This document shows positions 4,973-49,106 of a stretch of 64,000 bases of DNA, piece after piece. Numbering within the stretch: position 1 is the first letter of the stretch; each line of letters begins with the position of its first letter. Below the pieces are notes generated by a model, which worked only from the letters and a program-made list of their open reading frames with translations, searched no databases and was not told where the DNA came from. Both the position numbers and the translations under genes were made by a program. Source of the stretch: a virus (Duplodnaviria; Caudoviricetes); IMG/VR virus record IMGVR_UViG_3300031992_000051, positions 31,688-95,687 of that record. One strand, given 5' to 3'.

Positions 4973-7084
4973 TTAGTCGAGCTGGCTCTCCGGCTCCTTG
5001 CCCGCGTTCTTTATCCGCTGCCGGGCGGCGTAGTCCGCCTTGGCGGCCTCGCGCTTCAGGCGGGCCGTGAGCATCTGCTGGACCTGGGTCCACAGGGCGC
5101 GGTTCGAGAGGAACGTGCCCTCCGGGAGGACGTCCTTGCCTTCGTCGTCGAGGGGGATCGACGCCTTGTCGCGGTTCCCCTGGGCGTAGCCGACGACCTT
5201 GGCGGGCTTGCCCTCCGCGTCGGTCCCGTCCTTGAGCGTGAGGTACACGCCCTGCGACTCCGCGTTGTCGAACACGAACGACGGGTCGATCCCGCGGGAG
5301 AGGTTCTGCGCGGCGAGGCTCGACGCGGACGAGACGATCATGCGGGCCTGCGCGTCCGGGATGCCGTCGGACAGGAGGCTGTCGCGGAGCTTCGCCCGGC
5401 GCTCGCCGAACTGGAGGTCCATCGCGACGTTGCCGCTGTACCACGAGCGGAGCGAGGCTATCGTCGGATCGTTCGCGTCGGAGCCCGGCGAGAAGGCGAG
5501 GGTCGCTATCAGCTCCTCGACGTTCACCTGGCCACCGTTCATGAAGCCCTGCGAGAGGACGTCGCCGTTCGGGGCGGTCGCCCCGAAGAGCGCGGCCTGC
5601 GCGACCGCCTGCGCGGCGAGCTCGCGGCCCGGGCCATAGAACGAGCGGGAGAGCTTCCTCGCGAGGCCGTCCACCAGCTTCGCCGGGTCGGCCATGGCGG
5701 CGTCGGGGTAGAGCTGGCCCTTCGCCATCGCGGGCGTGAGCTCGCGGAGGAGGTAGCCGTGGATCGTGTCGGCCATCCCGTCGGCCTCGGGGCAGAGGGA
5801 CCTCGCGCCGGTGCGGCGGTCGACGCCCTTCATGTAGTCCTCGGCCCGGCCGGAGAGCTGCGCGTCGATGCGCTGGGGGCTGCGCCCGCCGGTGATCCGC
5901 CCGAGCATGTCAGAGCGGAGGCGCCGCACGCCCTCCACGATGTTGTCGGAGGGCTGCTCCATGTCGAGGAGCGCGTTGCGGACGAACCCGCCGAGCGCGG
6001 CGTTCACGTCGTAGCCCGCGTTGCGGCAGTCGGAGAGGATGTCGGAGCCCTGCGCCTTCGAGTACGCGACGACGTCCATGACGTCGAGGAGCGAGCGCTT
6101 GAGGCGCGGGTCGCGGAGGTCGACGGGCGTGCGGTCGTCGAGCCCCTCGAGCGTCATCTTGAGCGCGGGGAGGAGCGTCGCGTCGAACATGCGCCGCTGG
6201 TCGTCGGTGATCTCGGCGGGGCGGCGGACGCCGTCCCTGCCGACCTGCGGGTCGCCCTGGAAGGTCGAGGCGACGAGGTCGTTGTACCCGCCCACCACGT
6301 CGGAGGCGAGCTGCTTGCCCGTGACCCCCGTCTTGCCGGAGTAGTCCTCGGCGAAGTCGAGGAGCGTGCGGAAGGTGTGCGCGGCGCACCCGGACGTCTG
6401 GTGCGTGTCGCGGATGTAGTCCATGAACCGCTGCGCGCCGTCGCCGAACGCGCCGTCCACGCGCTCCTTGTTGTTCGCGTAGTCCTCGGCGAGCTCGATG
6501 AGCTGGAGCCGGTTCGCGACCGGCACGCCGCTGTGCGAGCTGCGCAGGAGCGGGTCCATGACGGACTTGATGACCTTGTCGTTCTTGAGGTAGAGGTCGG
6601 TCGCGTTCGAGCCGAAGCCGAAGCTCGAGAGCTCCTCGGACTTGCCCGCGAGGAACGGGCTGCCATCGGCGAGCGCCTGGCCGATCGTCGTCTTCGTTCC
6701 GTCGGACAGGACGACCTCGCGCTGGTTGAACGCCCCGCCGAGGATGGCCCTCGCCCTCGCACCGATCTGGTTGGACATCGGGCCGTAGCCGTCGCCCTGC
6801 ATCTGCGCCATCGTGCTCAGGCCGTCCCAGTTGAGGCGGATGCTCTCGCGCAGCTTGTCGTAGTCCTCCTTCGCGGCGGCGAAGTCGCCGTTGGCGAGGA
6901 GGTTCGCGACCTTGTCGACGTGGGTCTGCTCGAAGTTCCACGCGAGGCCGGCCACGGACTCGCCCGGCTTCTCGAACACGTCGCGGGTGAGGTCGGACTC
7001 CGCCTGGCGCCACGAATAGCGCCCCGGCTCCATCTGCTCGCTGTATCGGGACGTCACGTCCCCGTTGAAGATGTCGTTGGCCAT
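4973..7084 (-). CDS. Putative internal virion protein (703 aa)
   Basis: Long ORF with AAGGAG SD and GC3-biased codons, in the cluster after capsid/adaptor. No recognisable motif. Confidence 0.7.
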   Translation of the reverse strand: MANDIFNGDVTSRYSEQMEPGRYSWRQAESDLTRDVFEKPGESVAGLAWNFEQTHVDKVANLLANGDFAAAKEDYDKLRESIRLNWDGLSTMAQMQGDGYGPMSNQIGARARAILGGAFNQREVVLSDGTKTTIGQALADGSPFLAGKSEELSSFGFGSNATDLYLKNDKVIKSVMDPLLRSSHSGVPVANRLQLIELAEDYANNKERVDGAFGDGAQRFMDYIRDTHQTSGCAAHTFRTLLDFAEDYSGKTGVTGKQLASDVVGGYNDLVASTFQGDPQVGRDGVRRPAEITDDQRRMFDATLLPALKMTLEGLDDRTPVDLRDPRLKRSLLDVMDVVAYSKAQGSDILSDCRNAGYDVNAALGGFVRNALLDMEQPSDNIVEGVRRLRSDMLGRITGGRSPQRIDAQLSGRAEDYMKGVDRRTGARSLCPEADGMADTIHGYLLRELTPAMAKGQLYPDAAMADPAKLVDGLARKLSRSFYGPGRELAAQAVAQAALFGATAPNGDVLSQGFMNGGQVNVEELIATLAFSPGSDANDPTIASLRSWYSGNVAMDLQFGERRAKLRDSLLSDGIPDAQARMIVSSASSLAAQNLSRGIDPSFVFDNAESQGVYLTLKDGTDAEGKPAKVVGYAQGNRDKASIPLDDEGKDVLPEGTFLSNRALWTQVQQMLTARLKREAAKADYAARQRIKNAGKEPESQLD

Positions 7085-42106: not shown

Positions 42107-42763
42107 TCAATTCCAATGGCCGCCGGTGAAGTTGCCGGTCTTAGTCAAAAATGTTTTCGTGACTTGGTTGTAAAACGTGTAGACTCCTTCGAAGGTTATA
42201 CACGGTACCAAGTCATAAAGCAATTCTCCGTTTATTTTCAAGGTAGTGCGGCCCATTCTGAGAATTGCAGAACAGAGGAAATTAGTCCGGTTGAATAGAC
42301 GAATGTATGATTGGAATGAATATCCAGAATATGCGGGATATGTCGTGTTCGTCACTAGTTGCTCAGTTCCCCCGCTTGTGAGATTCTGGACCCATCCCCG
42401 TTGGATGCCATCGCCCATAATTGACTTAACCCGAAAACGCTGATTATTTATGAAAGCAACACTTCCCGAATCGTCTGTGCCTTGCGTGCCATAGTTAAGG
42501 TCAAGTTTGGCATTGAAAGTCTGTGCGATAAAAAACCAGACCATCGGGGAAGAGTCAATGGCTCCGCAAATGATCTTGTTTTGGTAATTCGTATCGTATA
42601 CAATGGTCTCAAATTCGTAGATCGCGGAGAAGTCAGGTTTGATACCTAGGTCGAAATACTTGTTTTGTGCCGCTGCAGAGTCAAGATAATCTAGTTCCTC
42701 GGCATACGGCAGCTTCGGCTTGCGCCGCGCCGCGAGAAAGATGCCTGCTGCCGCGTTCATCAT
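42107..42763 (-). CDS. Low-GC putative receptor-binding beta-sandwich (ConA/LamG-like) protein (218 aa)
   Basis: LDYLDS...YFDLG...LLYDLVPC...FYNQVTKTF matches the VEYVEATGTQWIDTG...LVRDFRPC...LYDAVSGSVF domain of 43269-45926. Visibly AT-rich DNA. Confidence 0.65.
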   Translation of the reverse strand: MMNAAAGIFLAARRKPKLPYAEELDYLDSAAAQNKYFDLGIKPDFSAIYEFETIVYDTNYQNKIICGAIDSSPMVWFFIAQTFNAKLDLNYGTQGTDDSGSVAFINNQRFRVKSIMGDGIQRGWVQNLTSGGTEQLVTNTTYPAYSGYSFQSYIRLFNRTNFLCSAILRMGRTTLKINGELLYDLVPCITFEGVYTFYNQVTKTFLTKTGNFTGGHWN

Positions 42764-43269
42764 AGCGCGGCCTCCGTTGGAATGGTGGCGAGGAACGCGT
42801 CAATCTCCGCGCGGGTCTTGCCCAGCGCGTCCGCCGCGCCGTCGAGAAGCGCGTTCCAGCGCGTAGCGTCGGGGTAGCCTTCCTCGATGTAGTCGCAGTC
42901 CGTGAGCGCCTCCCACGCGGTATATCCCGTCGCGATTTCAGAGGACGAAAGGAACGTGCGCGCGGCGGCGAGCATCCTCGCGTTGGCGAGGGCGGTCTTG
43001 ATGGACAGGCGCGTCCACCTGCGCGGGGGCGGGGACGGGTTCTCACGCACCTCGTACTCACGCTCGATATGGTCTGGCAGGTCGCGCCAGCCAGTCGGCG
43101 CGGCATAGTGCGCCTCGTCGGTCTCAGGCGGCACGTCCACGACGGGCTTGTAGCCGGCGGCCAGGTAGTCCGCCGCTAACGGGCGGACGACCATAACCCC
43201 TCCCGGGAAGACGAGGACAGACGGGGCCGCCTCGAACGCCCCGTCCCTGATTCTGCCGTACTCTGCCAT
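42760..43269 (-). CDS. Putative tail fibre assembly/chaperone-like protein (169 aa)
   Basis: True start ATG 43269 (MAEYGRIRDG) overlapping the fibre stop; directly downstream of the fibre gene. Confidence 0.55.
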   Translation of the reverse strand: MAEYGRIRDGAFEAAPSVLVFPGGVMVVRPLAADYLAAGYKPVVDVPPETDEAHYAAPTGWRDLPDHIEREYEVRENPSPPPRRWTRLSIKTALANARMLAAARTFLSSSEIATGYTAWEALTDCDYIEEGYPDATRWNALLDGAADALGKTRAEIDAFLATIPTEAAL

Positions 43270-47069: not shown

Positions 47070-47200
47070 CATTTTACTCTATAATATAATTATCTTTAAG
47101 AGTGAAAAAATAATAATATAATAAGGGGGAAAAAGAATAGAATAGCCTATAGGGAAAAGAAAAATTATTTTTCGTAGAATTGCAGAGCAAGTCATATCTT
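47070..47200. other. Extremely AT-rich patch (possible origin unwinding element or promoter/UP region)
   Basis: A/T runs and ATAAT repeats in an otherwise very GC-rich sequence. Confidence 0.5.
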
Positions 47201-47320
47201 GCAAAACGAAGGCATCCAAGATGTACTTCGCTGCGCTATGGCGTCAGTCGAGCACCATTCAAGTGGCGCATAAAGAATTGATGCCGTTGGCGGTTTCGCC
47301 AGACAGTTTTAGCACTTATA

Positions 47321-47662
47321 CGTCCCGTGATGCAAAACGGAAGACATCCCCGGCCGACAGGTCACAGGGGTGGAGCCGATGCAAAACCGGGTTGAGCCGT
47401 GCGCAACAAATGCCGATGCCTAACAGGTGGCACGGTCGGGTAGGGCGGGAGATATAGCGGTCGGCATGACGAGTACCACATTCGATAGCGAGGACTTTGG
47501 CCAATGGCATTTCGCCTTCGCCGTGACTCGAATGAAGAGGAAAGCATGCGGCTGGACCGTGAATTGTACCGTTCCGCTCCGTGAGACTCGGAGTACACGC
47601 GCCCCGACGGTGCGCCTGGAAGTAGTGGCGGCGTGCGGGTTCGATCCCCGCCGGGACGACCA
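47321..47662 (+). ncRNA. 342-nt tRNA-scaffolded RNA (tmRNA-like architecture, Leu-type identity)
   Basis: Perfect 7-bp acceptor CGTCCCG (47321-27)/CGGGACG (47652-58), A73, encoded CCA. Leu-type D-arm ATG-CAAAACGGAAGA-CAT; T-arm GCGGG-TTCGATC-CCCGC; ~280 nt between D- and T-arms. Confidence 0.7.
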
Positions 47663-47821
47663 CTTGGGCTCGACGTTCGTTCGAGGCTTCATGAGCCCAT
47701 TGACAAATAAAGGAGAGACTCGACACGCGGGGATTCGCCGCGCGCAACAAATGAAGGGAGATCGGCGCGCGTGCCGTCCAGACGCAGCCCGGGCCAGCCG
47801 GGCGAGCACGCATTGTCCTTT

Positions 47822-47966
47822 AGGGCACGGCATGAGTCCGCCGAGGTCGCAGGTTCGAGTCCTGCCCGGTGGCTGATGGTGGTAGCCGAGGCGAGGGAAC
47901 CCACTTACCCGACCCGAGACCGGCCGGTGGCGCAGCGGTCGGCGCGCGTGCGGCATGCCGTGTCCT
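47822..47966 (+). ncRNA. Circularly permuted tRNA-like element
   Basis: The 3' half (AGGTC, GCAGG-TTCGAGT-CCTGC, CCGGTGG) precedes the 5' half (CGGCCGG, TG, GCGC-AGCGGTCG-GCGC). The ends pair through AGGGCACGGCATG/CATGCCGTGTCCT. Confidence 0.6.
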
Positions 47967-48118
47967 TTTCATCTTCGCCGCACCCGCGACACGCGTGCGG
48001 ACGCTCGGGGAGCCGACGTGCGGTGGCGCTACGTCGGCCCGGAAAGTCGTCACCGAAAGAAGACGCCGGGGCCAGCAGGACCCCGTGAAAGACCTGCGCA
48101 AGGCGGTGGGAGCCCGCT

Positions 48119-48175
48119 TGCACCTCTCAGGGAAAGCCCGGCGCCGGGCAGGCGGTCCGAGTCCGCGGGGGTGCA
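48119..48175 (+). ncRNA. Mini tRNA-like element
   Basis: 9-bp closing stem TGCACCTCT/GGGGGTGCA stacked on a T-arm-like GCGG-TCCGAGT-CCGC, plus a GCCCGG/CCGGGC hairpin. Confidence 0.35.
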
Positions 48176-48539
48176 TCTTCGATTTCTCGGCCCGCGAGGG
48201 CCTTGGCAACCAACTGGAGGATTCCAAGCGACCCGAGTGCAAACGGGGAGCGCGGCGCCCTCCGATGCTCCACGCCGCGGATATAGCGATGAGGACGGAT
48301 GCCCTTTGCACGGGCACAGGGGCCGCTCCGGCTCCGCGTCTAAGTAGCGGCGAGTCAGCCACGGACGACGGAGCCGTCCCGTGCAACTCTTGTCTCGGCC
48401 CATTCGAGCCGGCAACCTCCACGCTAACAAATGATTCACCGCCTGCGGCCCTTGCAAGGGCGAAGCTGACGTCCCGTGTGGGGCCGATGGGCGGAGGGGG
48501 CGGGCCGGTGGCCGAGACGTTCAACAAAGGAGACCAGCT

Positions 48540-48710: not shown

Positions 48711-49106
48711 GATGCACCCCGAGCGTCCCCGGGGCCCCGGCATGCGGGGGACGCGGACGCTGACCCACTGTGAGGAAGTGGACTGCCGGGAGCTGACCAG
48801 GATAGAGCCAGGCATATCCCATGAGTCCGCTCGATAAACATGGACGCGGGACGCCGATGGAGGCAACGACAGTAGTCTCCGGGCGGCGGGTCTTCGGGCC
48901 CGCCGTCCTCATCCTCTTTGCAAGCCGCGAGCCTCTGGCGGGACCTGCGTACGGGGTCGACACGAGGCAAACCCGGTTCCCCGCGCCATCAATGCGGGCG
49001 TGCGGAGCTCCCCATCTCCAAGAGAATAAACTGTGGGCGGTTGCCCGGCGACCGAGAGCCCCGTCGGGGGTGCGCCGGGAGCTATTTCACCATAAGGAGA
49101 CAAACC

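Follow-up and report, generated by a model that had tools for sequence, protein, structure and literature searches.

The tRNA-shaped stable RNAs of phages (T5 RNA1, T4 species 1 and 2) are still without a known function, and the locus described here raises the question of what is made by a gene that begins and ends as a tRNA and carries a far larger insert. The 342-base gene lies at 47321-47662 (+) of the window, the 64,000-nucleotide stretch of rumen phage DNA that was analysed. The original prediction had read it as a tmRNA-shaped RNA with leucine identity, charged with Leu and appending an (L)ADA tag, or else as a tRNA-armoured cargo RNA or decoy.

The RNA gene, its copies and its carriers

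The phage record is complete, with 95,687 bp, direct terminal repeats and 67% G+C, and the phage sequence is present in gut runs of sheep, goat and cattle. The RNA gene stands at the head of an almost gene-free stretch of about 2 kb that precedes small rightward genes. The combination of T-arm, CCA and a matching 7-bp 5' strand had a single occurrence in the genome and none in 100 shuffles. Pattern scans of rumen phage contigs yielded nine distinct full-length copies of 342-354 nt with 69-99% identity, which represent only about five lineages, and three partial copies. The predicted RNA gene was therefore real: its tRNA-end architecture is above chance and is kept in nine distinct copies with mostly divergent flanks. 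In the more distant copies, the similarity of the flanks ends at the ends of the RNA.

Copies were found in two relatives of the window phage (G003, G005) and in G004, an unrelated phage of 163 kb; two proteins conserved in the window phage were looked for in G004 and not found. A close relative of the window phage, G002, is without the RNA, so the gene is an accessory one common to different phage types. It is also dispensable in some phages, as indicated by two broken copies, one with the 5' half replaced by other genes (L024:2006-2350) and one with the 5' half deleted (L030:1802-2137). No further copies were detected by pattern scans of viral contigs and 185,579 GTDB genomes, where 33 of 33 extra gap-pattern matches failed the acceptor test. 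Only ordinary tRNAs or short chance matches came from scanning 151 genomes with model R1 and from searching 221 genomes of a candidate host family at the DNA level, and BLAST against GenBank phages returned T-arm fragments only. A literature search found no paper describing the RNA. The RNA is thus real and conserved and apparently has not been described before.

Weak matches to one phage protein in 7 of 401 Verrucomicrobiota genomes faintly point to a rumen Verrucomicrobiota host. Weak homologues of the phage protein at 42763-43269 were located 10-14 kb from the host tmRNA gene in two genomes (G078 contig 29; G204 contig 51), suggesting prophages integrated there.

The RNA runs were chosen with the RNA as query, and their contigs show presence, not ends, strand or expression rank. 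In run X4, a contig covered 47232-47761 at a depth of 82, and the cattle RNA runs covered 47341-47685. Run X2 covered the whole region, so DNA carry-over is possible.

Cloverleaf and variable-arm fold

The features of the RNA, as determined from the copies, are the following.

47321..47327 (+): 5' strand of the acceptor stem (C1; pair U3-A70); 7 of 7 pairs in nine of nine copies, six invariant
47328..47347 (+): U8, G9, 3-bp D-stem (47330-32/47345-47) and Leu-type D-loop; D-stem with two-sided change in L033/L042, loop residues invariant
47348..47370 (+): arm in the anticodon position, made of two short stems and bulged by 2-4 nt on the 3' side; self-contained in all copies
47371..47374 (+): linker that joins position 44 and the stem of the variable arm, from the copy alignment
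47375..47632 (+): ornate domain in the variable arm, whole, 258 nt; covarying fold, no Rfam family
47375..47400 (+): arm base, 5' strands of helices 47375-82/47625-32, 47387-91/47615-19 and 47396-400/47607-11; 87-98% paired, 3 compensatory pairs
47383-86/47620-24: GAA/AGUA internal loop in the arm base, which we take to be of loop-E type
47401..47403 (+): candidate strand of a tentative 3-bp pseudoknot with 47598-600; 100% paired, no two-sided change
47412..47436 (+): bulged hairpin with 8-nt loop, holding the tag codons of the original prediction; 6 of 8 pairs compensatory
47438..47604 (+): inner domain, outer helices 47438-41/47601-04, 47443-48/47569-74, 47452-54/47565-67 and 47457-60/47557-60
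47438..47604 (+): inner domain, further in: helix 47464-68/47545-49, a second AGUA/GAA internal loop (presumably also of loop-E type), helices 47479-82/47531-34 and 47488-93/47515-21, and a variable terminal hairpin
47576..47594 (+): hairpin of 6 bp, 3 compensatory, with a 7-nt loop that we assume to be T-loop-like
47633..47634 (+): a single unpaired G followed by U48, the arrangement of class II tRNA-Leu; invariant
47635..47651 (+): T-arm, canonical, 5 bp and 7-nt loop; 5 of 5 pairs invariant
47652..47662 (+): acceptor 3' strand (G72), A73 and encoded CCA; invariant except for A70-to-G in L042

All the predicted tRNA motifs were recovered: the acceptor stem 47321-27/47652-58, A73, CCA, the T-arm, the Leu-type D-loop and U3-A70. 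The D-loop residues are A14, A15, G18 G19 (47339-40), A20 and A20a. Pair 3-70 is U3-A70 in eight copies and U3-G70 in L042, and G3-U70 does not occur. Across the copies, identity was 85-100% in the acceptor and D part and 96-100% in the T and acceptor part, but fell to 64% in the insert and to 43% in the anticodon-position arm, the least conserved part. Eleven of the 12 acceptor and T pairs are invariant, whereas the insert helices covary, which fits reading of the sequence by a protein.

The loop of the anticodon-position arm has 4 nt in the window and 7 nt in L033 and L042, with the middles ACA and TTT. No conserved anticodon was found in the copies; the loop and the middle bases vary, and none is a Leu anticodon. 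A 5-bp anticodon stem with a 7-nt loop and a Leu anticodon was not present, the stem being bulged. Since 47348-47370 makes its own arm, the insert, predicted to have about 280 nt and to follow the D-arm, has instead about 258 nt and lies in the variable arm. Two alternative pairings had been proposed earlier, a Leu-CAA tRNA fold and a helix hiding the resume codon of the tag. Both are present as sequence in the window, and both break in the divergent copies.

In the revised fold, 96% of the cells are paired and 24 of 89 pairs are compensatory; none of 500 shuffles scored as high and slid controls gave 2-6 pairs, the fold having been obtained by a conserved-helix scan of the same copy alignment that was used to score it. 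Cattle RNA contigs from outside the fold-building set contain variants that keep the pairs 47464-47549, 47466-47547 and 47441-47601. By comparison of the copies, the RNA folds as a full cloverleaf with an ornate arm that is under selection for structure. The predicted shape of the arm is an elongated, irregular rod, interrupted by the two loop-E-type loops and bearing two hairpins, one at the side and one with the T-loop-like loop, besides the tentative pseudoknot.

The four nested helices of the original prediction exist at their coordinates but are not conserved as structure, being 77-86% paired with 2 of 36 pairs compensatory. The folding energy of the RNA is unremarkable (z -1.5). The unconstrained minimum-energy fold (-141.6) lies well below the covarying fold when constrained (-116.1), and the two folds that were compared, at -116.1 for the covarying one and -116.7, are not separated by energy. 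Energy thus does not favour the covarying fold, and its support is comparative. An alternative pairing, 47406-09/47564-67, is 97% paired with one compensatory pair and competes with helix 47452-54/47565-67.

The checks proposed for this RNA included a comparison with known families and a covariation analysis of homologues. ARAGORN and Rfam, the latter in gathering and E-value modes, assigned no family to the window or to the divergent copies, and there was no full-length match to a known one; the nine homologues supplied the covariation given above. Relaxed ARAGORN returned noise only. Likenesses to group I J8/7, to group II domains I and V, to the T-loops of cobalamin and FMN riboswitches, to the L1 stalk and to RNase P were considered and dropped, as there was no model match.

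Leucine-type body, related RNAs and possible roles

Nine of nine copies carry A73, A15-U48, G18G19, A20a and the D/T-loop contact bases unchanged. The determinants of Leu identity in E. coli are A73, A15-U48, G18G19, A20a and the D/T contacts, and neither the anticodon nor the arm sequence (PMC9976931). The predicted Leu-type identity was accordingly upheld, as all the elbow and discriminator elements of Leu are invariant in the copies. Among 129 tRNAs, a comparison pool enriched in Leu (31/129), the scaffold was nearest to the short-arm tRNA-Leu(CAA) of L119, which belongs to a phage-like array and is almost identical to the RNA at the 5' end. The tRNA-Leu(CAA) of phage G004 shares the unusual C1-G72. 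Judged by these sequence relationships, the RNA is derived from a phage-type tRNA-Leu. Five ordinary Leu tRNAs are encoded in a separate array of G004; decoding therefore does not need the RNA, which does not serve as a tRNA for decoding.

The bacterial Pro acceptor signature also consists of C1-G72 and A73 (PMC9976931), and the Pro-identity residues G72, A73 and G49 are present in the RNA. Speaking against Pro identity, A15-U48 stands in place of the Levitt pair G15-C48 and there is no conserved GG (G35 G36) anticodon. Three tRNA-Leu genes with short variable loops (CAG, CAA, GAG) lie in a row in L119 / L170:511-748 (G464 contig 12), and G004 also has a short-arm Leu(CAG).

The RNA is a variant of the phage tRNA-like stable RNAs and differs from them by its size, by the position of its cargo in the variable arm and by a new ornate fold. 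The closest annotated analogue is T5 RNA1 (NC_005859:30501-30644, 'tRNA-like stable RNA with unknown functions'). Both are phage RNAs with a Leu-type D-loop, a T-arm and an insert that removes the anticodon, and they have in common an extra folded domain and a location in a phage RNA cluster. T5 RNA1, in contrast, has 144 nt, an insert in the anticodon arm, a small variable arm and no encoded CCA, whereas the RNA described here has a 258-nt insert in the variable arm, a perfect acceptor stem and CCA. Model R1 gave only 6.8 bits with T5 RNA1, and the inserts are not similar. With bacterial and phage tRNA-Leu (RF00005) the RNA shares A73, A15-U48, G18G19, A20a, the 3-bp D-stem and the T-arm, but it lacks a canonical anticodon arm and its variable arm is about 10-fold longer. 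The T4 species 1 and 2 RNAs (rnaC, rnaD) are stable phage RNAs of a tRNA cluster and have a T-arm as well; they are smaller (119-139 nt) and more distant, have no evident Leu D-arm and show no similarity to the insert.

ROOL and GOLLD are larger and are not known to be framed by tRNA ends. No match to the RNA was obtained with the Rfam models of ROOL, GOLLD, OLE and raiA; shared with ROOL and GOLLD is that these are large ornate phage RNAs, ROOL coming from the rumen (PMC12286853). In YrlA Y RNAs, too, a tRNA mimic is fused to a second module, but these are circularly permuted and partner Ro60, and the RNA here is not permuted (PMC4201824). No TROVE gene was found in five phage records. The tRNA introns of Lak phages (PMC6784885) differ from the RNA as well.

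Probably, the RNA is stable, mimics a leucine tRNA without taking part in decoding and bears a large domain of folded RNA on its variable arm. Of the original prediction, it was the second option, an armoured cargo RNA or decoy, that gained support. Host RNase P would very likely release the RNA from an early transcript, and 3' trimming would proceed to the encoded CCA, with the paired ends giving protection. As LeuRS needs neither the anticodon nor the arm sequence, charging by host LeuRS, after which EF-Tu could bind, has slightly better than an even chance. LeuRS may be hindered by the linker on the 5' side of the arm, which at 3-4 nt exceeds the length usual in tRNA-Leu. We propose tentatively, and with somewhat less than even confidence, that during infection the RNA would engage host proteins that handle tRNA, either by baiting a defence nuclease that cuts tRNA or by tethering the cargo domain to the synthetase, EF-Tu or the ribosome. 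Septu defence nucleases cut the variable loop of class II tRNAs during infection (PMC13096335); the existence of such nucleases makes the bait idea plausible, though it is no test of it. A bolder version is improbable: EF-Tu would bring the leucylated RNA to the host ribosome with neither a codon nor SmpB being involved, and the 258-nt arm, which departs where helix 2 does in tmRNA, would dock there and release, stall or redirect translation. Were this true, a large aminoacylated RNA that acts on ribosomes would have evolved a second time and independently, here out of tRNA-Leu. Should the RNA be charged, it would be a natural tRNA scaffold bearing about 260 nt on the variable arm, of relevance to phage counter-defence and tRNA-scaffold engineering. 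The RNA is unusually testable, since its acceptor end is perfect, all the Leu determinants of bacteria are present, and covariation defines its cargo, for which there is no Rfam family.

The main rival of the mimic reading holds that the tRNA body is packaging only, serving processing and stability, that charging has no purpose in it, and that the ornate domain works alone as a protein sponge, an RNA scaffold or a self-assembling RNA of the ROOL/GOLLD kind. The strongly structured insert with its two loop-E-type loops, T-loop-like hairpin and candidate pseudoknot speaks for this, as does the presence in the cluster of other tRNA-framed RNAs with different inserts, one of which (in L035) shares the GAA/AGUA module. 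Still, a near-invariant acceptor, A73 and a Leu-specific D-loop at about 70% overall identity are not obviously required for processing alone, and this explanation appears rather unlikely. A tRNA-Leu gene with a self-splicing or enzyme-spliced intron in the variable loop would account for an insert of the size of small group I introns, and some short motifs in it are reminiscent of J8/7 of group I and of domain V of group II introns. Introns of an enigmatic kind have also been reported in phage tRNAs (PMC6784885). It is nevertheless very unlikely: group I and II models did not match (E up to 5-10), 20 group II intron loci, each with about 1.5 kb surrounding domain V, gave no significant match to the insert profile, and the J8/7-like motif lacks a P7 partner that covaries with it. 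After excision, a bulged arm without a conserved anticodon, non-canonical in all copies, would remain, and hence a non-functional tRNA. No splice joint was listed in four RNA runs, the contigs of which show presence and not absence. That the gene is a decaying tRNA pseudogene with an accidental insertion would agree with the degenerate anticodon arm, the broken copies in L024 and L030 and the absence from G002; this has been largely refuted by the 24 compensatory pairs, by ends that do not vary and by the conservation of the gene in phages that are unrelated, and its probability is close to nil.

The headline of the original prediction, a Leu-charged trans-translation RNA appending (L)ADA, was not supported by the copies. 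The likeness to tmRNA (RF00023) is considerable: a length of about 350 nt (about 345 nt in the RNA), paired ends, T-arm and CCA, a large domain departing at the variable-arm position as helix 2 does in tmRNA, and GCC at nt 92 in seven of nine copies. The predicted GCC GAT GCC TAA is present at 47412-23. The tag and its stop, in contrast, are not conserved. In the tag frame, the copies read ADA*, AER* and AEH*, with unrelated peptides in L028 and L031. The stop is lost in L029, L033 and L042, where CAA replaces it; in L029, which shares 99% identity with the window, the tag frame contains no stop anywhere within the RNA. Tag readings in all three reading frames were examined and rejected, and a conserved frame of 8-35 residues with resume codon and stop, as expected of a tmRNA, was not found; the codons lie within covarying helices. 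An invariant UAG (47455-57) does close an open frame in all copies, but this frame crosses codons that are paired, and in L028 and L031 a stop already occurs upstream. As for pk1, which precedes the resume codon in tmRNA, only the long-range 3-bp candidate was found, without covariation.

In tmRNA, there is G3-U70, the D-loop is stemless, and SmpB takes the place of the missing anticodon arm (PMC3968760). The RNA has no G3-U70, its 3-bp D-stem shows the two-sided change, and the arm 47348-47370 occupies the SmpB position. Neither RF00023 nor the tmRNA mode of ARAGORN matched it; the RF00023 model detects the candidate-host tmRNAs at 120-186 bits. These are ordinary tmRNAs without similarity to the insert, and no SmpB gene was found in five phage records. 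A tmRNA, or a new trans-translation system, is hence rejected, and it is extremely improbable that a Leu-charged analogue enters stalled ribosomes and appends a short tag.

Neighbouring RNA elements

The RNA is followed by several other structured elements. A hairpin at 47667-47735 stands directly after CCA; its closing stem has two-sided changes in L025 and L033, a loop-to-tail pseudoknot is possible, and it had no Rfam match. It is reminiscent of the tRNA-trailer ribozymes. At 47820-47968 lies a circularly permuted tRNA-like element, with the T-arm first, a closed acceptor stem with a loop of about 48 nt, a D-arm and a 13-bp terminal helix. It is 93-95% identical in six loci and YrlA-like by a weak match (E 8.6), with no TROVE gene found in the phage. 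A 9-bp perfect complement, kept in L002, connects 47434-47442 of the RNA with 47906-47914 in the loop of this permuted neighbour and may be due to chance.

A conserved structured RNA of about 200 nt (47976-48176; 91-97% in L002, L029 and L035) ends in a mini tRNA-like unit (48120-48176), the T-loop of which is canonical in L002 and L035. The long hairpin with an A-rich bubble at 48385-48525 was found also in G002 (L023), L024, L027, L030 and L035. The non-coding block 48716-49100 is 94% identical in L002 and partly present in L035 and L042, and probably contains further structured RNAs. In the same cluster of L035, two more tRNA-framed RNAs with other inserts were located (5121-5266 and 5273-5400), and the latter has the same GAA/AGUA module as the base of the variable arm. 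The motif AACAAAT recurs at 47405, 47746 and 48426. On the upstream side, an HNH endonuclease gene (PF13392) directly precedes the RNA in L002 (2948-3502), with matching DNA in L029 and L036; the window has no such gene, and its positions 47199-47218 look like the remains of a D-arm copy that has decayed.
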